Origin: a bacterium
Lineage (GTDB): Bacteria > Patescibacteriota > Minisyncoccia > Phycocordibacterales > Phycocordibacteraceae
Length of the DNA stretch: 35,656 bases
Direction of reading: 5' to 3'
Assembly (NCBI GenBank): GCA_021833245.1
Contig: JAKBGA010000003.1
Span: 1 to 35,656, forward strand
In this document: in pieces, positions 15,777-29,635 of the stretch
How the letters are laid out: each line of letters starts with the position of its first letter
How positions within the stretch are numbered: position 1 is the stretch's first letter
Translations under genes and position numbers: made by a program
Notes under the pieces: generated by a model
The model's input: the letters and a program-made list of their open reading frames with translations, nothing else
What the model was told of the DNA's origin: nothing
The model's database searches: none

Positions 15777-17948
15777 TTATTTCGCTACCTGCACTGCCTC
15801 CTCAAACTTGACGGAAAGAAGCTTGGAGATGCCGTCGGCACCCATCGTAACGCCATAAAGAATATTCATACGGCTCATAGTCTCACGATTATGCGTTATG
15901 ACGATGAGTTGCGACTTCTTCGCAAGATTCTCAATCATGTCGCCATAACGGCGGCTGTTGGCCTCGTCAAGTGCAGCATCGGTCTCATCCAATATCAAAA
16001 ATGGCGGTGGATTCACAAGGCTCATTGCGAAAATAAGCGCGATACTTGTCAAGGCACGCTCACCACCCGATAGTTGCATTAACGAGCGCACCTTCTTTTT
16101 TGGTAGGTTAACGACGATTTCTATCCCCGGCTGTTCTTGCTCTTCTGAAGTTTCGTCGCTGGACCCCTCGAGCATGAGCTGTGCACTGCCACCGCCGAAC
16201 ATAAGAGCAAAATATTCGTTGAACGACGCGTTGACCTGCGCGAGCCCTTCGGAGAAATGTTTCGAGAGTTCAACATCCAGGTTGCGAATAAGTTCACCGA
16301 GACCTGCTGCTGACTTTGCAAGATCTTCAAGCTCAGTACCGAGAAACACCTCTCGCGCGGAGACCTCTTTATATTCGTGTCGAATATCTTCGCCCGTACC
16401 TCCTGCCTCTTCCAAACGGATCTTCATACGTTCAAGCGAATGGTGACGATCTTCTTGTACCTTGCGCTCTTCATCCGGCAACATGGAAAGTGGCGCGTAG
16501 GAAACTGCGGCCACACCAGCGAATGCGAGCACCTCACTCTTTTCACGTTCAAGTGTTTCAGAGAGAAGTATAATTCCACGTTCATGCGCTTCACATTGCG
16601 CAACCTTACCTTCCTCACGCGCCTTCGTCTGCGCTAGATCAAATACACGGCGATGCAATTCGCGACCCGTCTCTTCATGCGCGGTCAGCGCTTCACGATT
16701 TCGTGCGAGCGCAGACTTCGTACGCTCAAGCTCTTCGGAAAGCTTAGTTTCTTTTGCAAGGAGCTCTGTCCGCTCATTCTCAAGCGTGTAAACGGTGCGT
16801 TCCTCATCAGCGAGAAGATCATCCGTTGGCGCAACAAATCGATCCACGAATGATCTGATCGCTTTGTGTATCGCCGAAATCGCCGCAATAAGCGCATCTG
16901 CCGACGTATTTGTCTCTTCTTTCTGCCTATCAACTTCCTGCGCGAGTGCGATAATATCCTCCCGCGGCACCTTCGCATACGGTTCGCGTATGATTCGCTT
17001 GGAATGCTCCTTGGCAGCCGCAAGTGCACCTTCGACTCGGCCGATATCATGCGCGAGCGTTGCGCGTTCGGTATTGATACGTTCGATATCGTGTTCCATG
17101 GTTCGTACAAGCGCAAGATATTTTGCGCTTTCAAAGTCTACCGTTGCACGTTTCTCTATTTCTGAAAGTTCAGCGGTTGCAGAAGCAAGTCGCTCCGCCG
17201 CACCCTGTTTCTCCCTAGCGCGGATTAGCTTTTCCCGCGTCAAATACGCGTCCTCAACTGCAAAATAAGTCTGCGCAAGACTAATAAGCTCGATGCGTAG
17301 CAAATCGGCACGTTCAAGCTTTTTAACCTGATTTTCGAGAAACCGCAGGTGCGGTGTGAGCTCTCTTCGGAGAGAATTGACCTGTGCTATATTCTCCTCA
17401 GTTTTCGTCAACTTTTTCTGCGCCTCATTCTTCTTGAATTCATAAATCTTGAGCCCGAGCGCATCCTCGATCATGGAACGCCGCTCGCTCGGAGAGGTGA
17501 TCAATATCCTGTCTGCCTCCCCTTGTGAGATGATGTGATGACCCGTTTCACCAATATTCGCCCCAGCCAAAAGTTCCTCAATATCACGCAAACGCACACG
17601 CGAACCATTAACTGAATATTCACTTGTCCCATCACGGAAAACCGCACGTTCAATTACCACTTCATCGAAGTCAATCTTGAACGAACGATGAGAATTATCG
17701 AACACAATAGAAACCGCCGCACGGTTAGCGCGCGGCATTGAATGCGAACCTCCCCAAATAAGGTCCTCCGCGCGTTTGCCACGCATGCTCTTCATCGATT
17801 GTTCTCCGAGCGCAAAACGAAATGCTTCGGCAACATTACTTTTTCCTGAACCATTCGGGCCGACAATAGCAGTCGTCACACTTGCAAAATCCAAGACCGT
17901 CTTTTTGGCAAATGACTTAAATCCAACGATCTCCAGCCGCTTGAGCAT
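15777..17948 (-). CDS. smc: Short SMC-family ATPase (723 aa), no recognisable hinge
   Basis: GFKSFA, Walker A GPNGSGKSN, Q-loop ISQG, signature LSGGE, Walker B LDETDAALD, ITHN; coiled coils between the head halves; downstream of rnc. Confidence 0.85.
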   Translation of the reverse strand: MLKRLEIVGFKSFAKKTVLDFASVTTAIVGPNGSGKSNVAEAFRFALGEQSMKSMRGKRAEDLIWGGSHSMPRANRAAVSIVFDNSHRSFKIDFDEVVIERAVFRDGTSEYSVNGSRVRLRDIEELLAGANIGETGHHIISQGEADRILITSPSERRSMIEDALGLKIYEFKKNEAQKKLTKTEENIAQVNSLRRELTPHLRFLENQVKKLERADLLRIELISLAQTYFAVEDAYLTREKLIRAREKQGAAERLASATAELSEIEKRATVDFESAKYLALVRTMEHDIERINTERATLAHDIGRVEGALAAAKEHSKRIIREPYAKVPREDIIALAQEVDRQKEETNTSADALIAAISAIHKAIRSFVDRFVAPTDDLLADEERTVYTLENERTELLAKETKLSEELERTKSALARNREALTAHEETGRELHRRVFDLAQTKAREEGKVAQCEAHERGIILLSETLEREKSEVLAFAGVAAVSYAPLSMLPDEERKVQEDRHHSLERMKIRLEEAGGTGEDIRHEYKEVSAREVFLGTELEDLAKSAAGLGELIRNLDVELSKHFSEGLAQVNASFNEYFALMFGGGSAQLMLEGSSDETSEEQEQPGIEIVVNLPKKKVRSLMQLSGGERALTSIALIFAMSLVNPPPFLILDETDAALDEANSRRYGDMIENLAKKSQLIVITHNRETMSRMNILYGVTMGADGISKLLSVKFEEAVQVAK

Positions 17949-17978: not shown

Positions 17979-18671
17979 TCAGGACCACCGCAAGGTCATA
18001 AGTCCTGCCTCAGCAGCGGATTGTTCTGCCTCCTGTTTGCTCTTCCCTTCTCCTCGAGCTATTTCTTCTGTGCCAATGAAAACACCGACGGTAAATAGTT
18101 TTGCATGATCCGGACCTTCCTCGGAAAGCGTCTCGTATGATGGCGTAATTCCATGCTTTTCTTGTGCGATCTCTTGGAAACGACTCTTGGCGTCTTGGTA
18201 TGAGCGCTTCGCGATGACATCGTCAATCTTTCCGTAAAGATTCTTCGCAATAAATGCTTCGGCAGCTTCGAATCCTTGATCAAGATACACTGCACCTATA
18301 ATTGCTTCGTGAGCATCTGCAAGTATTACATCGCGCGCACGGCCTTTATCACGTGATTCGCCCTTAGAAAGTAAAAGAAATTCATTGACACCAAGTGCTT
18401 GCGCACTTTCGGCAAGCGATATGGTATTTACAAGTGCTGCACGATAGCTCGTAAGCTCACCTTCAGATCCTGAGGGAAATTTCTTAAACAAGAAGGCGGT
18501 CACTGCAAGTTCGAGGACTGCATCACCAAGAAACTCAAGTCTCTCGTTGTGATTTCCTGTATATTCACGATGTTCATTGAGATAGGAACGATGCGTCAAT
18601 GCCTCGATCAGAAGATCGTGGTTTTTAAACGAAAGATTGTGTCGTTTTGCAAAGGCAAGAAAATCAGGCAT
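17979..18671 (-). CDS. rnc: Ribonuclease III
   Basis: ALTHRSY..NERLEFLGDAVL signature; C-terminal dsRBD (DAKSRFQE..GKSKQEAEQSAA). Confidence 0.97.
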   Translation of the reverse strand: MPDFLAFAKRHNLSFKNHDLLIEALTHRSYLNEHREYTGNHNERLEFLGDAVLELAVTAFLFKKFPSGSEGELTSYRAALVNTISLAESAQALGVNEFLLLSKGESRDKGRARDVILADAHEAIIGAVYLDQGFEAAEAFIAKNLYGKIDDVIAKRSYQDAKSRFQEIAQEKHGITPSYETLSEEGPDHAKLFTVGVFIGTEEIARGEGKSKQEAEQSAAEAGLMTLRWS

Positions 18672-19587
18672 GTGTACTGATACTTTGGCTTTTCACACCA
18701 CTTGTGCGGTCGAGAAGATTTTGAACTGCCACCGTGACGATGGGGAGCATATCATCATAAAAATTTAGGTCAATGATGTCTTGAAGACGAAACCATTTCG
18801 CGTCATCCAGTCCGCCACTTTTCTTGAGTGTGAGCGGTTCAAAGTCGCAGAAGGCAAGAAAGAACCATACATGTTTACGTATCTTTCCTTTCTCTGGATG
18901 CGAGGCGATGTATTCATTCTCGCCGACCTGATTCTCTACCGTGGCAATCAAGCCGAGTTCTTCTTTAATGACACGTGCCACTCCTATCTGAGGGGTGGCG
19001 TCCTGCTCAATATGACCTTTCGAGAGGGTCCATCTGCCGAAAACATCATGCACGAGTGCAAGGTAGTATTGTCCATCATGTTTTGCATAAACGATTGCAC
19101 CGCCCATTTTCTCCATAGGAAGATCTTCTCGCTTCATTTTATTCCCCCCCTGTTCAGCCTTCCCAGGCTCACCAAGCTCTTTATATACGGCACCGAGAAC
19201 ACCATTGATAAAACGACCTGATGAGTCTCCGCCGAATGTTTTCGCAAGTTCTATGGCTTCATTTATGGCAACCTTCGCCGGTACTTGACTTCGATCGGCG
19301 AAAAGAAGTTCGTAAAGTCCGAGACGTAAAATGTTTCGATCAATTGGGGCAATACGTTCAAGAGGCCACTCGGGAGCAGCTTTTTCAATAACAAGATCAA
19401 TGTCTTCTTTCTTGGCAAGCACGCCCGCAAGGAGATGCTCCATAAATGACTGATCAATATCGCCGCTACCAAACTCTACGATATTGCGTGTAAGAATCGC
19501 AGCGGCATCCACATCATTCGCGTGAATTGTGTCCCATTCGAAAAGCGTCTGTAAAACAATGGAGCGTGCTAAATGTCGATTTGCCAT
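18664..19587 (-). CDS. nusB: Antitermination factor NusB fused to a C-terminal Nudix-fold domain
   Basis: RHLAR..LQTLFEWD, WPLERIAPIDRNILRLG, VAINEAIELAKTFG..FINGVLG, followed by a Nudix-like WTLSKGHIE..ARVIKEELGL..AKWF. Confidence 0.9.
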   Translation of the reverse strand: MANRHLARSIVLQTLFEWDTIHANDVDAAAILTRNIVEFGSGDIDQSFMEHLLAGVLAKKEDIDLVIEKAAPEWPLERIAPIDRNILRLGLYELLFADRSQVPAKVAINEAIELAKTFGGDSSGRFINGVLGAVYKELGEPGKAEQGGNKMKREDLPMEKMGGAIVYAKHDGQYYLALVHDVFGRWTLSKGHIEQDATPQIGVARVIKEELGLIATVENQVGENEYIASHPEKGKIRKHVWFFLAFCDFEPLTLKKSGGLDDAKWFRLQDIIDLNFYDDMLPIVTVAVQNLLDRTSGVKSQSISTHA

Positions 19588-19658
19588 GAAAAGATCTGTG
19601 CGTGCAGTATAACAAATCCCACGACCACACAACACGTTCCATGGGGGACAAAGACGTT

Positions 19659-21079: not shown

Positions 21080-24000
21080 ATGACATCGCGATTCATTCAC
21101 CTCCACACACATAGTCACTATTCATTTCTTCAAGCATTACCAAAAGTGGATGAATTGGTTGACAAGGCAAAAAAAGAAGGGATGGATGCACTTGCGTTAA
21201 CTGATGCAGGCAATATGCATGGTGCTATTGAATTTTACAAAGCCGCAACCAAGGCAGGTATAAAACCAATTCTTGGCGTTGACGCCTACCTCGCCCCACG
21301 CTCGCGAAAAGATCGAGATCCAAATATAGATACAAAACGCTCGCGCATCGTCCTTCTTGCGGAAAACAACGAAGGCTATAAGAACCTTATGGCACTTGTC
21401 ACCTTATCCTGGACAGAGGGATTTTTCGAACGCCCGCGTATTGATAAAAAGTTATTGTGCGAGTACCACAAAGGGATTATCGCCCTTTTGCCATCCTTCG
21501 CAGGAGATATTGCGCAACTTTTACGTGCGGGTGATAAAGATGGTGCCACGGCTACGCTCGCCGAGTTTAGAGATATATTCGGTACCAAAAATGTTTTTCT
21601 TGAAATTACACATCACCCGCTTGTCAAAGGGCACGAGAAACTCATGGAGCAAATTATCGCATTCGGAAGAGCGAATGACGCTCCACTCGTCGGTCAACAT
21701 GATGTCTATTACCTTGAATCCGACGACCGCGAAGCAACTGAAATTATGCGACGTATTCAACAAGGTGGGCACGGTAGGAATGAAAGTGAGGACTTTTCCT
21801 TCATCGATGAAAAAATTGCAGAAAAACTCTTTAGGGAAACCCCCGAGGCATTGATAAATACACGGAATATCGCCGATCGTTGTACAGTTTCTTTTGAACT
21901 CGGCAAATGGACCTTCCCAGCGGTGCCAGTTTCCTCTGGATTTAAGAATCATGATGAGGAATTGAGAGCCAAGGCATATGCAGGTATTACATCACGCGGG
22001 CTTGAAGAGTCTAAAGAAATCATTGACCGCATCGAGTACGAATTGCGCATTATTATTGACAAGGGTTTCGCCGTGTACTACCTAATCGTTGCTGATCTCC
22101 TCGCATTTGCACGCCATGCTGGTATTCTCACCACCACGCGTGGTTCAGCGGCTGGAAGCCTCGTCGCCTATCTAGTTGGTATCACAAACGTCGATCCACT
22201 TTTTTATAAATTACCCTTTGAACGATTCCTTAATCCGGAACGCCCCAAAGCACCAGATATCGATATGGATATGGCTGATAATCGTCGCGACGAAATGATT
22301 GCGTACACGAAGCAGAAATATGGTGAAGATCATGTTGCTCAGATTGGCACTTTTGGCACCATGATGGCGCGTGCCGCGGTACGTGACGTAGCGCGTGCAC
22401 TCGGACATTCTTACACTACCGGCGACCGTATCGCAAAACTCATTCCCATGGGTTCTCAAGGATTCCCCATGACCATTAACCATGCCCTCGAGCTTGAACC
22501 GGATCTGAAAATGATTTACGACGAAGACGATGAGGCACATGAAATTCTTGATCTTGGGAAAAAAATCGAAGGTTGTGTACGACATGTCGGTGTCCACGCG
22601 GCTGGTGTCGTGGTTGCACCAACCCCACTTATTGAATGGACACCGATCCAACCAGACCCAAAGGGCACTGGTAAACTCATCACTCAATACGATATGTACT
22701 CAATTACCGACGAGTATGGTGGTGTCGGCCTTCTGAAATTCGATTTCCTCGGCATCAAGAACCTTGCTATTCTCGCTGACGCAGTCGCACGGGTAAGGGA
22801 AACGCTTAACATTGTCATTGACATCGAAAATATTCCTATTGACGATACGAAAACCTACCAAATGCTTGCGCGTGGCGAAACGGAAGGTACTTTCCAATTG
22901 AATGGTTCCGGTATGACTCGCTGGCTCAAGGAACTTAAGCCGTCGACCATTCATGACATAAACGCAATGGTCGCTCTCTATCGCCCGGGACCAATGGAGA
23001 CTATTCCCCAGTATATAGAACGAAAACATAATCCAAAGCTTATTCACTATCTTGATCCACGCATGAAGGAATATCTTGATTTCTCATACGGTCTCCTCGT
23101 GTACCAAGACGATGTCCTACTTACTGCCATTAAACTCGCCGGCTATTCATGGCTCGAAGCGGATGCACTTCGAAAAGCAATGGGTAAGAAAATCCCGGCC
23201 GTCATGCAAGCGGAGAAAGAAAAACTATTAACGGGTTTCGTCGAGTATGGGAAACTCTCCAGGAATACGGCGGAAAAGCTTTGGTCACTTATCGAACCAT
23301 TTGCCGCATATGGCTTCAACAAGGCCCACGCTGCAAGTTACGGTAAGGTTGCCTACCAGACTGCTTACATGAAAGCGAACTATCCTGTTGAATACCTCGC
23401 CACTGTCCTCACTGCCAGCGCTGGTGACACAGAGCAGATTTCCACCTTCGTCGCCGAAGCTAAGCGCATGGGTATCACCGTGCTTCCACCAGATGTGAAC
23501 GAGAGCGGAAGTGACTTCACAGTCACGGGGGGAGAAAGAAATTCCATTCGTTTTGGGCTTTCCTCGATTAAAAATTTTGGTGACGGTATCTCGGATACGA
23601 TTATTACTGAACGCGAGACACGCGGTCCTTTTCGAACACTCACCGATTTTCTTTCTCGTATCGGTTCAAGAAATCTAAATCGGAAATCACTTGAATCCCT
23701 CATAAAGTGTGGCGCTCTCGACTCTTTGGGTTCAGCGGCTGATAAGCGTGGAGTATTGCTTGAGAATGTGGAGACGCTCCTCTCCTTTCATCGAGAGACA
23801 ACCGCGACTGCACCGCAAAAATCACTATTTGGAACCTCTGTTCAACTTCCAGCATTCCAACTTTCAGAAAGCAGTAGACTGGTCTCGTTACTGGATAAAC
23901 TTGCGTGGGAAAAGGAATTACTCGGTATTTATGTGAGCGGCCACCCGCTCGATATATATGAATCTGTAGCAAGAAAAACAAAATTCACGATAGCAAGAAT

Positions 24001-24265
24001 CAAGGAAGATCCAAAACAAGGTATGCTCCTGATCCTGCCTGTGCTTGTCGTTCTGGTACGCGCTATCCTTACCAAAGGTGGCGAGAAGATGGCATTCATT
24101 ACAATGGAAGACACCACGGGTACGCTTGAAGCGGTCATTTTCCCAAAGCTTTTCAAACAATACACAACTGTGATTACCTCGGGTGCCTGTCTACTCGTGA
24201 GGGGCAAGGTTTCTGTAAGGAATGGAGAAACCTCGCTCATCATAGACGAATTGAGGCCACTGTAA
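21080..24265 (+). CDS. dnaE: DNA polymerase III alpha subunit
   Basis: PHP domain, RGSAAGSLVAY, FERFLNPER..PDIDMD, KFDFLG, YGFNKAHA, clamp motif QKSLF, C-terminal OB fold. Confidence 0.97.
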   Translation: MTSRFIHLHTHSHYSFLQALPKVDELVDKAKKEGMDALALTDAGNMHGAIEFYKAATKAGIKPILGVDAYLAPRSRKDRDPNIDTKRSRIVLLAENNEGYKNLMALVTLSWTEGFFERPRIDKKLLCEYHKGIIALLPSFAGDIAQLLRAGDKDGATATLAEFRDIFGTKNVFLEITHHPLVKGHEKLMEQIIAFGRANDAPLVGQHDVYYLESDDREATEIMRRIQQGGHGRNESEDFSFIDEKIAEKLFRETPEALINTRNIADRCTVSFELGKWTFPAVPVSSGFKNHDEELRAKAYAGITSRGLEESKEIIDRIEYELRIIIDKGFAVYYLIVADLLAFARHAGILTTTRGSAAGSLVAYLVGITNVDPLFYKLPFERFLNPERPKAPDIDMDMADNRRDEMIAYTKQKYGEDHVAQIGTFGTMMARAAVRDVARALGHSYTTGDRIAKLIPMGSQGFPMTINHALELEPDLKMIYDEDDEAHEILDLGKKIEGCVRHVGVHAAGVVVAPTPLIEWTPIQPDPKGTGKLITQYDMYSITDEYGGVGLLKFDFLGIKNLAILADAVARVRETLNIVIDIENIPIDDTKTYQMLARGETEGTFQLNGSGMTRWLKELKPSTIHDINAMVALYRPGPMETIPQYIERKHNPKLIHYLDPRMKEYLDFSYGLLVYQDDVLLTAIKLAGYSWLEADALRKAMGKKIPAVMQAEKEKLLTGFVEYGKLSRNTAEKLWSLIEPFAAYGFNKAHAASYGKVAYQTAYMKANYPVEYLATVLTASAGDTEQISTFVAEAKRMGITVLPPDVNESGSDFTVTGGERNSIRFGLSSIKNFGDGISDTIITERETRGPFRTLTDFLSRIGSRNLNRKSLESLIKCGALDSLGSAADKRGVLLENVETLLSFHRETTATAPQKSLFGTSVQLPAFQLSESSRLVSLLDKLAWEKELLGIYVSGHPLDIYESVARKTKFTIARIKEDPKQGMLLILPVLVVLVRAILTKGGEKMAFITMEDTTGTLEAVIFPKLFKQYTTVITSGACLLVRGKVSVRNGETSLIIDELRPL

Positions 24266-24344: not shown

Positions 24345-26798
24345 TTATGCGCCAATTACGGCAAGTGCACGAGTTAATGCAAGCTTTGCGCCGGTTACAC
24401 CAGTTGTGTAACTCGCATCGATGGCTGTAGCAAGAGCGGCGACAAGTTTCTCGAGAGTCGTCGTTGAAAAACGTGCGGTCAGCCGCACAATATTGGAATC
24501 GCAGGCAGTTCCATCAATACGGGAGCGATACGCGTCATCGATGAGACAAACGACGGCAGAAAGAAGTTGCTCTGGAGAACCGGCGCCGCGAATATGCTGT
24601 CGCAACACGGAGAAAACGGCGGCGCGGTCACCTTCAATGAGCGCGGTTGCAAAACCACGAACGTCCGATGGCACCGCATCTCGTTCAGTAATAGTTTCGG
24701 TCGTAATTGGTTCAACGTTTTTAAAGATTGGTTCAATGTTTGGTTTCGATTCCACCTTTTGTTCGACAGGTTCGGTCGAACGTCTTCGCGAAAGACCCTT
24801 TACAATATCGTCAATCGAAAGTGCTTCATTATTTTGTGCGAGAGATTTGAAACCCTCATATGACGAATAACCGCGTGGCGCCTCAGGTAGCGTTGAATTG
24901 TGTAGCGCGAGAGGTGGTACTGGTTCGGTTGTTACCACAGATACGGGAGGCACCTCAGTTAGCATAGACTCACGTGCATTAAGCACTGACAATACTCGAA
25001 GACTAAAACCCTTAACATACCTATTTATGAGCGGTGCTATGCCAAAAAGAACTAGATATGCGAGAGCAAGTGCCCAACCGATGAGAATAATCCAGTAAAG
25101 TGCAGTACCGAGTGGGCCGAGGTCAAGGCCGGTGTATGGAATTTGAGATAGGTAGAGATATGCAAGTGGTTGCGCCCTTATATGAGGGAGCTCTGCGAGA
25201 GTAATGGTGGGCGGTAATGAACCGCCCCCCCCACCGCAATTACCCGTGCAGCCCCCACCACTTGACGTCACGGTAAGCGTGGCATTGCAAGTGAGTGTTT
25301 GACCGTTCTGTGCATGGAAAGTTCCTGTGTAAGTATGTGTACCTATAGTCGTCGGAGAAATCGTGATTGAACCAGGTGAGCTCGTTGCCGTTGCGATACC
25401 ATTATCAATATCAACATTTAATATCTCGTTACCACCCCAGGAAAGTACTGAGGAACCTCCAGTCGTATAGCTTGTTGGTGAAACTGCAAGAGAACAGGAC
25501 GGACCGCCACCGCTACCACCTTGGGTAGAGACTGCCGCGGAACAAGTTACTGATTGCCCGGATGAACTCACGGCCGTACCAATAAACGTTGTATTGGTTG
25601 TGATTGCCGGAGTAGTGGTTGACCCACTGACCACTGGGGTAGTTGTTCCAATTCCATTGTTAATTGTAAAAGAGGTGGCATTCGTCGTCGTCCATGAAAG
25701 CGTCGAGGAACTGCCGGTGGTGACGGAGGTAGGCGAAGCCGCGAGTGTACAGGTTGGAGCTGGAGGCGAGGGAGGCAAGTTAACACTTTGATTCTTGAAG
25801 ACGACGGTCGTACACATAGATCCACTTTGCACAGTCACATTTCCACCTGCGGGCGTTACTGACAGGGGCTTCCAGGAACTGCCTGGGTCTACCTCGGTTA
25901 CCTGATGTGCGCCTGGAGAAACTGATTGGAATTGCGCATTCCCATTTGCATCATTTTGTGTGGATGCACCACCATCGAGCACGAAAGTGAACTGTGCAAC
26001 AGGGGTAATCTTGTTTCCATTCGAATCAAATGTCTCCTTTAAGACGTCGATGCATCCAGTCGCGGGAGCGGGTGGAGGCTTCGTTATGGTGACTGTCGCT
26101 GTACAATGAACGGATCCACCAGGGCCGATAGCTATGCCTGTGTAGGTAGTGGTTGCAGTTAGAGAAACAAGATGTGTACCGGATGAGACGGGAGTAACGG
26201 AACCTATGCCTTGATCAATTGTAAAAGAGGTGGCATTCGTCGTCGTCCATGAAAGCGTCGAGGAACTGCCGGTGGTGACGGAGGTAGGCGAAGCCGCGAG
26301 TGTACAGGTTGGAGCTGGAGGTGGTGGTGCAACTGTTATCAATACATTACAAGTTGTCTCACCACCAAGACCCTTAACAGTCATAGTATAGCTTGTCGTT
26401 TTGCTAACAGAGACTGTTTGAGAGCCAGACATAACCGATGAGACTCCGCCAATACCATTATTAATGGTGGCACTTGTCGCGGCAGAAGTTGTCCACGAAA
26501 GTGTTGAGAACCCTCCATTAAAAGGGAGCGATGCTGAGTTCGCAGAAAGCGAACAGGTTGGAACCGAAAGTGGGATTACAGGGGCGGGTGGGGGTGGGGG
26601 TGGGGGTATTGGTGTAGGTATGGGCATGGACGGAAGTGAGCAACAAGGTGGGGCTACTTGTGCAAACACCTGCGCTGGAGTTATGGCACCGGTTACAAAT
26701 GCAATCATTATGCCTAAAAAAACTATTGCAGATACCGTAAACAATCCGATGAAAAGCGGATTTATTTTCTTATGTGAATTGGTTGTGTATTCATTCAT
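24345..26798 (-). CDS. Large cell-surface protein: signal/TM, Pro linker, Cys-paired Ig-like repeats, CnaB/SpaA-like domain, internal IPYTG sorting-like motif, TM helix, cytoplasmic domain
   Basis: Four PTCxLxxSP..SxLSW..I..GI..C repeats; IDVLK..VTE..FKN domain; YLSQIPYTG then hydrophobic ALYWIILIGWALALAYLVLFGI; ~225-aa C-terminal tail. Alternative GTG start at 26810. Confidence 0.8.
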   Translation of the reverse strand: MNEYTTNSHKKINPLFIGLFTVSAIVFLGIMIAFVTGAITPAQVFAQVAPPCCSLPSMPIPTPIPPPPPPPAPVIPLSVPTCSLSANSASLPFNGGFSTLSWTTSAATSATINNGIGGVSSVMSGSQTVSVSKTTSYTMTVKGLGGETTCNVLITVAPPPPAPTCTLAASPTSVTTGSSSTLSWTTTNATSFTIDQGIGSVTPVSSGTHLVSLTATTTYTGIAIGPGGSVHCTATVTITKPPPAPATGCIDVLKETFDSNGNKITPVAQFTFVLDGGASTQNDANGNAQFQSVSPGAHQVTEVDPGSSWKPLSVTPAGGNVTVQSGSMCTTVVFKNQSVNLPPSPPAPTCTLAASPTSVTTGSSSTLSWTTTNATSFTINNGIGTTTPVVSGSTTTPAITTNTTFIGTAVSSSGQSVTCSAAVSTQGGSGGGPSCSLAVSPTSYTTGGSSVLSWGGNEILNVDIDNGIATATSSPGSITISPTTIGTHTYTGTFHAQNGQTLTCNATLTVTSSGGGCTGNCGGGGGSLPPTITLAELPHIRAQPLAYLYLSQIPYTGLDLGPLGTALYWIILIGWALALAYLVLFGIAPLINRYVKGFSLRVLSVLNARESMLTEVPPVSVVTTEPVPPLALHNSTLPEAPRGYSSYEGFKSLAQNNEALSIDDIVKGLSRRRSTEPVEQKVESKPNIEPIFKNVEPITTETITERDAVPSDVRGFATALIEGDRAAVFSVLRQHIRGAGSPEQLLSAVVCLIDDAYRSRIDGTACDSNIVRLTARFSTTTLEKLVAALATAIDASYTTGVTGAKLALTRALAVIGA
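25662..25766. repeat. 105-bp exact direct repeat, copy 1
   Basis: Identical to 26217-26321; encodes PPAPTCTLAASPTSVTTGSSSTLSWTTTNATSFTI. Confidence 0.95.
26217..26321. repeat. 105-bp exact direct repeat, copy 2
   Basis: Identical to 25662-25766; offset 555 bp (185 codons, in frame). Confidence 0.95.
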
Positions 26799-26810
26799 GA
26801 GTGTTTGCAC

Positions 26811-26861: not shown

Positions 26862-27998
26862 TTACTGTCTAGGAAATTTTGACAGATCGATTGCACTCGG
26901 TCCCCATACCGGCCATTCCTGACCATCATAAGGAATATGAACCGTTGTCACCGTTCCTTTTTCCCACACGTTCGGTTGGACGATCCATGAGTCGGACTGG
27001 CCGACCTTCAAACGCGTATCGCAGAACGCCACATAGTTCTGTTCAACTTCCAATGGAAGACGAAGCGATTGATTGCTATGCCGAGCGACATACTTTCCGG
27101 TATAAAGTGGCTTGAAGCCGGCCGGTATAACCGACATTGGACCGATCCAGTCGCAAGTATCGCAAGGCGATGGAGGAGCCGCACAATCGTCACCATCACA
27201 GAGCTGCCAACAAGCTGACGCCGGAAGACGTTCCCGTGTAAGGATGGCAAAGCGGAATTCATCGCCCGGCTTGCCTACATATTTTATTGTCCTGCAAGCA
27301 AGTACCGAGGAGGGTCCAAATCGCCAGCCTTCGTTGAAACAGACGTACGGAATGAACCAGATATAGGTTTTCCCTTCGTATGTCCATTTCCATTCCCGCA
27401 CTCTTGCTGTTTCAGCAACTGAACCGGGAAGATAAAAACGTCCGTTGGGTGAACGTAACACTGGTAACTCCGCAACCGAGACATAGTTCATGACCCAATC
27501 AGTTGCATGATTGCGATCAGGCCCTGACATCATCTGTTCAAGCGACATGCCTGGTGTATACCATGCCCTTCTGCCACCCCTGCAACCAGTTTCAAACACT
27601 TTTTTGAAATGTTTTTTGACTAGCTGTGGTAGACGCGTGCCGTCGATTGCTTCGGGAGCCTTCCGGCATGCCTCAGCGAAGGAATGCGCATACGGCGCTG
27701 CCCCCCAACGGCTCCACTTCTCCTGCTGTGGTGATGCAGGTTTTGGTTTTTGCGTCTTTTTTTTAAGATTAAGGCTAGCGTGTGTCTTTTTTTGTGCTCT
27801 GGATGAGACCATTACGATCGGTTTCGATGAAACAGGTGCTTTTGTCTTCATCATTGATAACGGTTCTTCCGTATTATCAATTGTACGACCGTACCAGTGC
27901 CACAATAAAAGTCCGAGGCCAACTGCCATTACGAATGCAAGAAGCCAGACGAATTTCGGCTTCTCTTTTTTAATGATGAGGCCGCTGAAGAACTTCAT
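26862..27998 (-). CDS. Exported/membrane-anchored Cys-rich hypothetical protein (378 aa)
   Basis: Strong SD AAGGAG 6 nt before ATG; N-terminal TM helix; basic linker; 10 Cys including CWQLCDGDDC..CDTC. Confidence 0.75.
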   Translation of the reverse strand: MKFFSGLIIKKEKPKFVWLLAFVMAVGLGLLLWHWYGRTIDNTEEPLSMMKTKAPVSSKPIVMVSSRAQKKTHASLNLKKKTQKPKPASPQQEKWSRWGAAPYAHSFAEACRKAPEAIDGTRLPQLVKKHFKKVFETGCRGGRRAWYTPGMSLEQMMSGPDRNHATDWVMNYVSVAELPVLRSPNGRFYLPGSVAETARVREWKWTYEGKTYIWFIPYVCFNEGWRFGPSSVLACRTIKYVGKPGDEFRFAILTRERLPASACWQLCDGDDCAAPPSPCDTCDWIGPMSVIPAGFKPLYTGKYVARHSNQSLRLPLEVEQNYVAFCDTRLKVGQSDSWIVQPNVWEKGTVTTVHIPYDGQEWPVWGPSAIDLSKFPRQ

Positions 27999-28056: not shown

Positions 28057-28112
28057 ACTCTCCTTGCGGAGAGTCATTCGATTTTCAGCTAACTGGAAAT
28101 CGAATGACTCTC
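28057..28112. repeat. 20-bp inverted repeat centred on the sortase stop codon, overlapping a 7-bp GCAA-tetraloop hairpin
   Basis: GAGAGTCATTCGATTTTCAG-ctaa-CTGGAAATCGAATGACTCTC (28069-28112, 19/20 complementary); ACTCTCC-GCAA-GGAGAGT on minus (28074-28057). Confidence 0.85.
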
Positions 28113-28769
28113 GACAAAGTCCGCGGTGACAATGAAACGGTCACTTTTAGTCGCGAACGAGTTACAGGTCACAAGCGTGAGCACTTGTCCAGGAACGGTA
28201 AGATCAATGCCTGAATTGTTCGCGATGTTTTCTTTTGTGACACTTCTCACTTGGTATATATACGCCTCATCAGAGGAATACACCGTAATAGCGTCACCTG
28301 CCACAAGCTTCTGAATACCATCGAAGGTCTTATATGCTTGGTCACCAACTATCGGTAAGTAGCTCGAGTGACCGAAAATAACAACATTACCAACTTCACC
28401 AAGCATAGCGGAAGTCGGGTATCGTACAGCTCCCTTAAGGAGCAGACCGTCGAGTGTACTGATGTTGGTCGTATCTGGATTTTCAATATTCACAGCGAGT
28501 TTTATCGCGGGAATTGCTATGCTTGTTGGAGATTCGACCTTGAGTGTTGGTGCCAACATGGCGGCACTCACGGTAACAGATGGTTCCTCCACAAACGTAA
28601 TGGCGGAATTATCCGGTGGCGGTACCCCTGGTAAAAGATTGAGGCGGGCAAGTATTGCTACAGTGCCAAGAAAAATTAAAGCGAAAACACATAGAAAGCT
28701 CCACTTTCTTGCGTAAGCTTGTTTGCCGGCCTGAATAAGCCGCGCGGTAAACCCGATAGCCCATGTCAT
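28089..28769 (-). CDS. Sortase (class D/E-like)
   Basis: N-terminal TM; IAIPAI; GNVVIFGHS (His); LTLVTC (Cys); DRFIV (Arg): complete catalytic triad. Confidence 0.92.
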   Translation of the reverse strand: MTWAIGFTARLIQAGKQAYARKWSFLCVFALIFLGTVAILARLNLLPGVPPPDNSAITFVEEPSVTVSAAMLAPTLKVESPTSIAIPAIKLAVNIENPDTTNISTLDGLLLKGAVRYPTSAMLGEVGNVVIFGHSSYLPIVGDQAYKTFDGIQKLVAGDAITVYSSDEAYIYQVRSVTKENIANNSGIDLTVPGQVLTLVTCNSFATKSDRFIVTADFVESHSISS

Positions 28770-28819: not shown

Positions 28820-28855
28820 TAAAAAGCAAGTATGTGGTATATATCCACATACATT

Positions 28856-29635
28856 ATGAATACATATGCAACCACACCTACATCATTGCCACGTCAAACG
28901 GCCATTAAAATTCTAGCGGTAATCGGTTTCGTTGCACTTATTGGCACAGGTATGTGGCTTGCCGTTTATTCGACGCAATTTGTACCTTCAGTGATAAATC
29001 GAATTGGTGAAGCGACGGTTTACCTTGGCTCAGTCTTCACACCTCAACATACATCCAATAATCTATCGGTTATTCCGATGACGCCAACTGCATCAACTAC
29101 AATATCATTCGGTGAAGCGAGTTCCACGGGCTCAAAAATGCCAGTAAAACATCCGACAACTATGTATAGAACCAAGCGGATTACGACAACCGCTGGTACC
29201 AAGGAAGATACCGTCTACCAAATGAAAGGTTCCGTTGGCACGCCTTCACTTTACGGCCTTCCTGATTTTGTTACGACTATTGACGCGATTGGATATCTCG
29301 CAACGACCTCAGCGGATTCTTTTGTTGCAAGTTCAACGGTTCCAACAGGAAGTCGCCCTGCCGTAAGATTTACCATAAAGAATATCGGCACAAATGCGAC
29401 TGGCCCATGGCGTTTCAGCGCCCTTATTCCAACACAAACCGCGTATATTTACCAATCGCAACCGCAACAATCCTTAAACCCTGGCGATAGCATCGATTAC
29501 ACCCTCGGCTTTGACCAGGCAAATAAAGGTGCAAATGAAACCATTTCAATTACCGCAAACTTTGATCATGCGGTCGTTGAATCGAATACTAACAATGATA
29601 GTGCTTCTGCGCAAATAACTATTCTCGGAAATTAA
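28856..29635 (+). CDS. Membrane-anchored protein with Thr/Ser-rich linker and C-terminal CARDB (Ig-like) domain
   Basis: N-terminal TM; PDF..VRFTIKNIGTNATG..SLNPGDS..NFDHAVVESNTNND. Confidence 0.75.
   Translation: MNTYATTPTSLPRQTAIKILAVIGFVALIGTGMWLAVYSTQFVPSVINRIGEATVYLGSVFTPQHTSNNLSVIPMTPTASTTISFGEASSTGSKMPVKHPTTMYRTKRITTTAGTKEDTVYQMKGSVGTPSLYGLPDFVTTIDAIGYLATTSADSFVASSTVPTGSRPAVRFTIKNIGTNATGPWRFSALIPTQTAYIYQSQPQQSLNPGDSIDYTLGFDQANKGANETISITANFDHAVVESNTNNDSASAQITILGN

Follow-up and report, generated by a model that had tools for sequence, protein, structure and literature searches.

A Patescibacteria surface-protein precursor joining a sortase-type motif to a DnaX-like C-terminal tail

RESULTS

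Organization of the locus and anatomy of the encoded protein

The window analyzed here is a stretch of 35,656 nucleotides (nt), positions 1 to 35,656 of contig JAKBGA010000003.1 (assembly GCA_021833245.1), from a member of the Patescibacteria (family Phycocordibacteraceae) which we take to be a tiny, groundwater-type bacterium with a genome of 586 kb in 52 contigs. On its minus strand, an open reading frame (ORF) of 821 amino acids (aa) encodes a surface-protein precursor with a DnaX-like tail, the only protein of its tail family in this genome. A sortase gene is found on the same strand, and the ORF converges with dnaE. The features of the ORF and its neighbors are listed in Table 1.

The ORF opens with GTG at 26810, with an ATG five codons in, at 26798, and ends in a stop codon at 24345-24347; we regard the ATG as the likelier start. 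The N-terminal hydrophobic segment, a putative signal peptide or signal anchor, is separated by a proline-rich spacer from the Ig-like repeats of the ectodomain, within which aa 270-312 form a weak SpaA/prealbumin-like stretch (SpaA E value of 0.14, below the cut-off). A glycine-rich spacer then leads to the sortase-motif stretch, LSQIPYTGLDLG. The transmembrane (TM) helix behind it is followed by the basic residues NRYVKGFSLRV, beyond which the protein continues for another 226 residues, including a folded domain. In an AlphaFold2 (AF2) model of the last 274 aa, built on a 50-row alignment, residues 19-70 of the construct formed one long helix comprising the TM and juxtamembrane parts, the linker motif ..GFKSLA..ALSIDDIVKGLSR was a short helix in disordered surroundings with a predicted local distance difference test score (pLDDT) of ~63-68, and the terminal domain was compact with a pLDDT of >95. 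Within the linker motif (aa 645-676), the residues G, F, L, D, V, G, L, and R were nearly invariant.

An earlier, sequence-only reading of this DNA had pointed to the last 106 aa of the ORF and likened them to domain III of DnaX, placing them inside the cell. With a single signal-like segment at the N-terminus and a single TM helix (aa 567-595) that has basic residues behind it, the tail should indeed be cytoplasmic, and we keep this location as a prediction from the sequence.

Table 1. Coordinates of the 821-aa ORF, its parts, and the adjoining genes in the window
Feature	Position (nt)	Strand	Basis or remark
Surface-protein precursor with DnaX-like tail (predicted cytoplasmic), whole ORF, 821 aa	24345..26810	-	ORF translation
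Hydrophobic segment near the N-terminus, aa 16-43, preceded by a basic stretch (HKK)	26682..26765	-	Hydropathy
Ectodomain with four Ig-like repeats, S/T-rich and bounded by Cys, that start at aa 84, 167, 352, and 437	25266..26561	-	
IPYTG, aa 557-561, sortase-type pentapeptide in the conserved context LSQIPYTGLDLGP.GT..YW	25128..25142	-	
TM helix, aa 567-595, leading into a basic juxtamembrane helix to ~aa 617	25026..25112	-	Sequence and AF2
Linear motif PRGYSSYEGFKSLAQNNEALSIDDIVKGLSRR, aa 645-676, conserved within a linker that is otherwise disordered	24783..24878	-	
C-terminal six-helix domain, aa 716-821, with the predicted fold of a clamp-loader collar (DnaX domain III)	24348..24665	-	
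Sole sortase found in the genome, 226 aa, two genes upstream of the 821-aa ORF	28089..28769	-	PF04203, E value of 7e-20
Cys-rich protein of 378 aa with a single TM segment at its N-terminus, encoded between the sortase and the putative substrate	26862..27998	-	
CARDB-domain protein, divergent from the sortase	28832..29635	+	
dnaE (DNA polymerase III alpha), convergent neighbor, 79-nt gap	21080..24265	+	Context

The terminal domain is predicted to fold as a clamp-loader collar

When the tail domain was modeled alone with AF2 (50-sequence alignment), six helices were obtained with a pLDDT of 91.6 and a predicted TM-score (pTM) of 0.84. In a Foldseek search of this model against the PDB, the check that the sequence-only reading had itself proposed, clamp-loader gamma came out on top: ranks 1 to 33 were all E. 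coli clamp-loader entries, mostly chains B to D, with TMq values of 0.69 to 0.78 over 109 to 117 columns at 15 to 18% identity, and the best row (8vat_B) had an E value of 1.8e-3, a TMq of 0.73, 114 columns, and 18% identity. After rank 33 followed B. subtilis delta, an MgsA C-terminal fragment, and RFC/CTF18.

A VIA-align comparison with 48,161 representative chains gave the same picture. The top rows were again gamma, with Z scores of 13.8 and 13.4 and 111 to 113 residues aligned within chain residues 206/207-360; for 8gj0_B, 111 residues were aligned within residues 207-360 at a root mean square deviation (rmsd) of 3.8 (Z of 13.8). These were followed by B. subtilis delta (12.1), RFC subunits (10.7 and 10.0), delta' (10.0), E. 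coli delta (9.6), C-terminal domains of the MgsA type (8.1 to 7.4), and the T4 loader (7.7). Helical bundles may reach Z scores of ~13 to 14 without kinship, and what makes the result persuasive is that the top 13 rows, from 13.8 down to 7.4, were all C-terminal domains of clamp loaders or MgsA, one structural class, and were cleanly separated from the first unrelated row at 6.2. By AF2, Foldseek, and VIA-align alike, the tail was superposable on domain III of gamma, and its resemblance to this domain is more than chance.

Sequence comparisons place the tail on DnaX domain III and an adjacent module on the lid

At the sequence level, the support for a collar was weaker than at the structural level, yet consistent with it. 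Using a DnaX profile made from 30 Patescibacteria DnaX sequences, hhalign first aligned tail positions 10-64 with DnaX 233-287 (score of 35.4, probability of 60.6%, P value of 8.3e-5), and a larger tail alignment extended this to tail 9-85 and DnaX 232-319 (score of 37.8, probability of 73.4%, P value of 3e-5). The controls stayed well below, at 14.9 for reversed columns and at most 19.4 for 20 column shuffles. An in-house profile comparison with longer profiles matched tail 8-92 to DnaX 230-323 (score of 37.5, probability of 33.5%, P value of 4.4e-4). In all three profile alignments, the tail fell on domain III, and the register was the one that the sequence-only reading had proposed by eye.

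The Pfam family of this part of DnaX, DNA_pol3_gamma3 (PF12169), also matched the tails of two orthologues from the same order (L025 and L033), with E values of 2.1e-4 and 3.8e-4 in a whole-genome search and of 0.0061 and 0.018 (16.8 and 15.2 bits) when the proteins were compared with all of Pfam. The matches covered model positions 17/19-129 of 143, and no other family apart from Ig-like and low-complexity ones matched these two proteins. In a language-model neighbor search, the best neighbors were PF12169-bearing clusters (0.90 with 171 shared features, then 0.88 and 0.88); the ten best family-bearing neighbors all fell into one family or clan, as they do for a third of shuffled proteins. 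As a side observation, the ESM Atlas lists PF12169 clusters of short proteins (111 to 153 aa) for Minisyncoccota and for viruses (Uroviricota), and these may be fragments of the tail family or free-standing collar proteins.

In divergent orthologues, the cytoplasmic part measured 290 to 460 aa and contained, ahead of the collar, a conserved module of the form ..vLvS.eG..li......a..L..vi..Ak..YPREDGWl.Ln.eRv..ll. When a 13-sequence alignment of this module was compared with DnaX by hhalign, positions 6-82 matched DnaX 164-231, the lid of the AAA+ module, with a probability of 92.9% and a P value of 3.6e-7. Since the lid match ended at DnaX 231, exactly where the collar match began at 232, the tail is colinear with DnaX domains II-III and lacks domain I. 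Two relatives (L173 and L179) carried the lid-like module and no collar.

Of the lid-like region, the subfamily to which the window protein belongs keeps just the 32-aa motif YSSYEGFKSLAQNNEALSIDDIVKGLSR. MAFFT aligned this linker motif with ..YEQEDGW.HLTKDRVVLL of an intermediate member (P0149) in one alignment, and the motif is probably a relic of the end of the DnaX lid-like module. Its origin is nonetheless uncertain, because the lid alignment reached only 1.8% in hhalign against the window-type alignment (A2) and a greedy run of A2 against DnaX placed the motif near DnaX 142-170 and not at the lid end. Pfam searches with 16 long or short tails of relatives returned no lid or collar family, only a weak AAA_assoc_2 match on L051 (E value of 0.026).

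Distribution and conservation of the tail family

A phmmer search with the 116-aa tail against 1.84 billion representative sequences returned 257 matches at E values of ≤1e-3, 137 at ≤1e-10, and 40 at ≤1e-30, nearly all of them lying at the C-terminal end of proteins whose lengths ranged from 55 to 1378 aa. Among the window protein and the 150 listed matches (n = 151), an [LIVMF]PxTG-like motif followed by a TM helix was present in 108, lying 214 to 379 aa (median 282) ahead of the C-terminus. IPYTG accounted for 77 of these, VPYTG for 14, LPYTG for 9, MPYTG for 3, and other variants for 5. The remaining 43 proteins without the motif were all ≤376 aa long and mostly fragments. Conservation around the motif extended over ~30 residues (..qpla.vyLSqiPYTGldLGP.GT..YW).

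The tail is retained while the ectodomain varies freely in length and sequence between relatives. For the same-genus orthologue, the open frame was 478 aa, compared to 838 aa here, and only residues 534-821 aligned. Within the tail (116-aa numbering), R32, D53, D54, R57, E82, D93, K104, and R109 were invariant or nearly so. Such strongly conserved charged residues suggest a specific interface, with the tail itself or with a partner.

In an order-level sample, 29 of 201 genomes matched the family profile. For 26 of them the match covered the collar part, the collar of G406 was recognized via PF12169, and in G467 and G372 only the TM/linker part matched. In a phylum-wide sample, only 2 of 301 genomes matched, both from the window's own family. 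In species-representative genomes, 127 loci were found, mostly assigned to Candidatus Kaiserbacteria or Paceibacterota. The distribution of the family is thus patchy within one order of the Patescibacteria.

The tail co-occurs with a sortase locus

Sortases act on LPXTG-type motifs by cutting between T and G while the precursor is held in the membrane by a hydrophobic segment and a charged tail. The sequence-only reading had described the protein as an adhesin with an intracellular collar; the collar-like tail stands, and the IPYTG motif and the sortase had been overlooked. Cleavage at IPYTG would separate the mature surface protein from the collar, and an adhesin with an intracellular collar would exist only as a precursor. 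The sortase of the window was nearest to the class E and class C models, falling below the cut-offs of both, and, going by its sequence and position, is the probable processing enzyme of the 821-aa precursor. A simple scan of the ORFs of the genome gave no other convincing C-terminal sorting signal.

Sortases were found in 28 of the 29 tail-bearing genomes (the exception being G468), compared to 63 of the 172 genomes without the family, counts that come from related and therefore nonindependent genomes and were not subjected to a statistical test. Among 20 related loci, examined as stretches of ≤20 kb, the tail gene had a sortase nearby in 18, a CARDB protein in 17, dnaE in 17, and gyrB in 15. 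Some relatives have at the same gyrB-CARDB-sortase-X-dnaE-rnhB locus a protein with SQ[IV]P[YA]TG and a TM helix, in which the motif is followed by 63 to 161 aa without a detected collar; one of these short-tailed relatives (L173) matched PF00746 weakly (16.6 bits, E value of 0.0078, cut-off of 20). The presence of short-tailed substrates at this fixed locus indicates that the collar-bearing tail is an elaborated form of an ordinary sorting signal. At other sortase loci without a collar, a classical LPNTG or LPKSG was followed by a TM helix and then by a short, basic tail. Four loci of the same order (L172, L174, L176, and L177) showed this arrangement beside other sortase genes, with LPNTG/LPKSG, a hydrophobic stretch, and a short basic tail such as ..QKTQKR or ..RKKQVI, so that canonical sortase substrates do exist in this order of Patescibacteria.

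A sorting signal consists of an LPXTG motif along with a hydrophobic domain, plus a short positively charged tail, as defined in the available excerpt of PMC12445088. In the window protein, IPYTG (aa 557-561) is followed by the hydrophobic helix at aa 567-595, and the protein is probably, by its sequence features, a sortase substrate. Given the conserved [ILVM]PYTG and TM helix ahead of the tail, the sole sortase two genes upstream, and the co-occurrence in 28 of 29 genomes, we conclude that this C-terminal region is probably a sortase sorting signal that has been expanded by a DnaX-like cytoplasmic module without an ATPase.

Neighboring genes and other observations

The 378-aa Cys-rich protein had no match in Pfam or NCBIfam and, among the 20 related loci, recurred in the same-genus relative only; it is a candidate member of the sortase system. 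The CARDB protein adjoined the sortase in 17 of 20 loci and was also present at loci whose substrate lacks a collar, and it may be part of the same surface system. The 79-nt gap between the 821-aa ORF and dnaE yielded no terminator-like site. The remainder of the window holds housekeeping genes (rpoB/C, dnaG, rpoD, rnc, nusB, rnhB, gyrB, and genes for RNase R and an SMC-like protein) and a family 2 glycosyltransferase (GT2). Three of the products were of unusual build. A 323-aa ORF (18664..19635, minus strand) combines a NusB domain (aa 23-152) with a NUDIX domain (aa 192-290), and the ORF for ribosomal protein L32 (19659..20024, minus strand) encodes 121 aa with the L32p match at aa 9-56 and a C-terminal extension of ~65 aa. 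The SMC_N-type protein (15777..17948, minus strand) has 723 aa, and as the Pfam head-domain match spans residues 1-708, its coiled coil must be much shorter than that of canonical SMC proteins, which exceed 1100 aa.

The clamp-loader genes of the genome lie elsewhere. Its dnaX (G000:C47; L001:150-1193, minus strand) encodes 347 aa, the length of gamma, and open frames for DnaX were mostly ~340 to 420 aa in the window's own order, compared to ~490 to 590 aa in most other sampled Patescibacteria; the C-terminal domains of tau appear to have been lost throughout the order, with or without the tail family. A 236-aa HolB-like ORF (L003:1177-1887, minus strand) had delta' and delta models as its best matches, far below their cut-offs, and a 233-aa HolA-like ORF (L088:1498-2199, plus strand) was found by TIGR01128, likewise far below the cut-off; a PF06144 search of the genome detected no HolA. 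These partners look miniaturized. The idea that the tail substitutes for a missing HolA or HolB collar was dropped, as both ORFs keep a helical C-terminal part.

DISCUSSION

Comparison with known systems

With domains II-III of DnaX (PF12169; E. coli gamma in 1jr3, 3glf, and 8gj0), the tail shares the six-helix collar, with 111 to 114 residues superposed at 2.7 to 3.8 Å, and its opening AL..GD......L......G..PE.(F/L)L is in register with DnaX 232-287. Divergent orthologues share, in addition, the lid-like module directly ahead of the collar in the same order. The window protein contains no AAA+ family of Pfam or NCBIfam; an ectodomain, IPYTG, and a TM helix precede its tail, which is thereby tethered to a membrane helix behind a secreted ectodomain. 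The tail is much more conserved within its family than domain III is among DnaX proteins, and its signature LDDAYRARIDGT ... TGAKLALTRAL is absent from the DnaX consensus. Finally, the tail remains below the Pfam threshold, and a genuine dnaX is present separately in the genome. Lacking the ATPase domain and falling below the threshold, the window protein is not a member of DnaX.

The C-terminal domains of MgsA/WRNIP, delta, delta', and RFC (3bge, 3pvs, 3zh9, and 1iqp), which have a role in oligomer assembly, belong to the same structural class as the tail (VIA-align Z of 7.4 to 12.1). They score below gamma, however, and, as parts of soluble proteins, always come after an ATPase or ATPase-like domain.

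Like sortase substrates, the window protein has an N-terminal signal-like segment, Ig-like repeats, and a neighboring sortase gene. It shares with cell-wall sorting signals the (I/L/V)PxTG-type pentapeptide, the hydrophobic helix, and the basic residues, as far as the excerpt of PMC12445088 describes them. Unlike in these signals, ~220 residues follow the basic stretch in the window family, including a folded, highly conserved domain, and the context of the motif is conserved over ~30 residues. The pairing of one substrate with one sortase at a fixed chromosomal locus also sets it apart from these signals. The window protein corresponds in full to neither DnaX nor a textbook sorting signal. 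In Pfam, NCBIfam, and the main texts of the literature searched, we found no clamp-loader lid or collar fused to a membrane protein or sortase-sorted protein, in agreement with the sequence-only reading, which knew of no protein with this architecture. The pilus of the candidate phyla radiation (CPR), as presented in the available part of preprint PMC13278184, was considered and set aside as a chaperone-usher-like system different from the tail family.

Weighing the interpretation against its alternatives

Several results weigh against a DnaX-derived tail on a sortase substrate. The window tail itself had no Pfam or NCBIfam match at E values of ≤10, a profile search of the PDB sequences with the tail found no clamp loader, and BLASTP of the tail against the genome's own DnaX gave an E value of 34 only. 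Across the whole genome, PF12169 matched solely the true dnaX on another contig, and its matches to the orthologues stayed under the gathering score of 24.4 bits. The in-house profile comparison reached a probability of only 33.5%, no Foldseek row had an E value of ≤0.001, and the high Z scores obtainable by unrelated helical bundles bear on the VIA-align result. The linker motif was not docked on the collar in the AF2 model. As to sorting, the window protein does not end in a short positively charged tail and matched neither PF00746 nor the LPXTG anchor models of NCBIfam, and the kinship of the genomes limits the co-occurrence counts.

Some of these points would fit a tail that is an unrelated helical bundle resembling a collar by chance: nothing exceeded a curated threshold, identity to gamma in the structural alignments was 15 to 18%, and bundles score high Z from the arrangement of their helices alone. 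Chance would nevertheless have to explain why the top 13 VIA-align rows fell into one structural class before the drop from 7.4 to 6.2, why the hhalign scores were ~2 times that of the best of 21 controls, why two orthologues independently matched PF12169 over model positions 17-129, and why an adjacent second module matched the lid of DnaX, at 92.9% and in DnaX order; the language-model neighbors agree. We see only a slim chance that the resemblance arose without common descent, and the tail is very probably a DnaX-derived module. A different question is whether the protein is cleaved at all. It could be a type-I membrane protein in which IPYTG is an unprocessed juxtamembrane motif and the collar multimerizes the whole surface protein from inside, an oligomerization that the sequence-only reading had already suggested. 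Conservation well beyond the pentapeptide (LSQIPYTGLDLGP.GT..YW), a tail far longer than any classical sorting signal, and a sortase that reaches no curated class cut-off would all suit such a protein. We nevertheless consider it unlikely, since a sortase neighbors the gene in 18 of 20 loci, 28 of 29 tail-bearing genomes encode one, the homologous substrates that relatives carry at this locus end in ordinary short tails, and one of these matches the LPXTG-anchor Pfam family, if weakly and below its cut-off (E value of 0.0078).

The sequence-only reading had also proposed that the collar may tether the replisome to the membrane, with the position next to dnaE as a clue. A membrane-bound collar would then bind the collars of DnaX, HolA, or HolB, anchoring or sequestering the clamp loader and linking surface display or host attachment to replication. 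The tail is homologous to the very part of DnaX that mediates subunit assembly, its conserved charged residues suggest a specific partner, the gamma-length DnaX of the lineage leaves no room for the C-terminal domains of tau, and in 17 of 20 related loci the tail gene and dnaE converge. The last point loses its force, however, because the same gyrB-CARDB-sortase-substrate-dnaE-rnhB order, dnaE included, is found in relatives whose substrate tail has 63 or 161 aa and no detected collar, so that adjacency to dnaE reflects lineage synteny and is a feature of the locus, not of the collar. Moreover, the family occurs in 29 of 201 genomes of an order in which a short DnaX is general, and by eye DnaX and the HolB-like and HolA-like proteins each have a helical C-terminal part of their own, so no collar appears to be missing. 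Tethering of the replisome is thus unsupported, and we judge it decidedly unlikely. An elaboration in which the ATPase-less lid and collar of a sortase-processed protein engage a miniaturized clamp loader (gamma-length DnaX and HolA/HolB-like proteins of ~235 aa), reporting the display or loss of the surface protein to replication, strikes us as very improbable. A complex prediction for the genome's own DnaX (residues 228-347) and the tail, both entered as alignments, gave a score of 0.00; made without controls, it bears neither way.

A model for the expanded sorting signal

In clamp loaders, the five subunits are held together by a collar made of their C-terminal domains, and from this role we consider an assembly of the tails through their collars the most likely mechanism for the expanded sorting signal. 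In the scheme we propose, a secreted precursor would carry [ILVM]PYTG and one TM helix, followed by a cytoplasmic extension of ~220 aa in place of the usual few basic residues. The extension would descend from the C-terminal half of a DnaX-like subunit, with the lid reduced to one motif, the collar intact, and the ATPase gone. At the cytoplasmic face of the membrane, the collars would assemble the tails, and this assembly may retain and cluster the precursors beside the dedicated sortase encoded two genes upstream. Cleavage at IPYT|G would then leave a membrane-anchored stub of TM helix, linker, and collar. As a whole, from the sortase-type precursor with its lid relic and collar to the stub left after cleavage, the scheme is in our estimation an even call, and the step in which the tail acts by collar-mediated self-assembly, drawn by analogy with clamp loaders, is a tentative proposal that falls somewhat short of that.

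The structural and evolutionary part of the interpretation is, in our view, solid. To our knowledge, collar and lid domains of clamp loaders have been known only within soluble AAA+ replication proteins, and we know of no sortase sorting signals other than those ending in a few basic residues. The family described here is conserved and joins a DnaX lid/collar to a sorting signal, a module of a replication protein reused in an envelope pathway of Patescibacteria. It also provides a new recognizable C-terminal signature of surface proteins, composed of LSQIPYTG, a TM helix, the GFKSFA..LSIDDIVKGLSR motif, and the collar. This raises the testable question of what role the cytoplasmic remnant of a sortase substrate may have. 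These ultrasmall, probably host-dependent bacteria are presumed to need host attachment for their growth, and if it were true that the collar contacts the clamp loader, the family would constitute a direct link from the envelope to the replisome.

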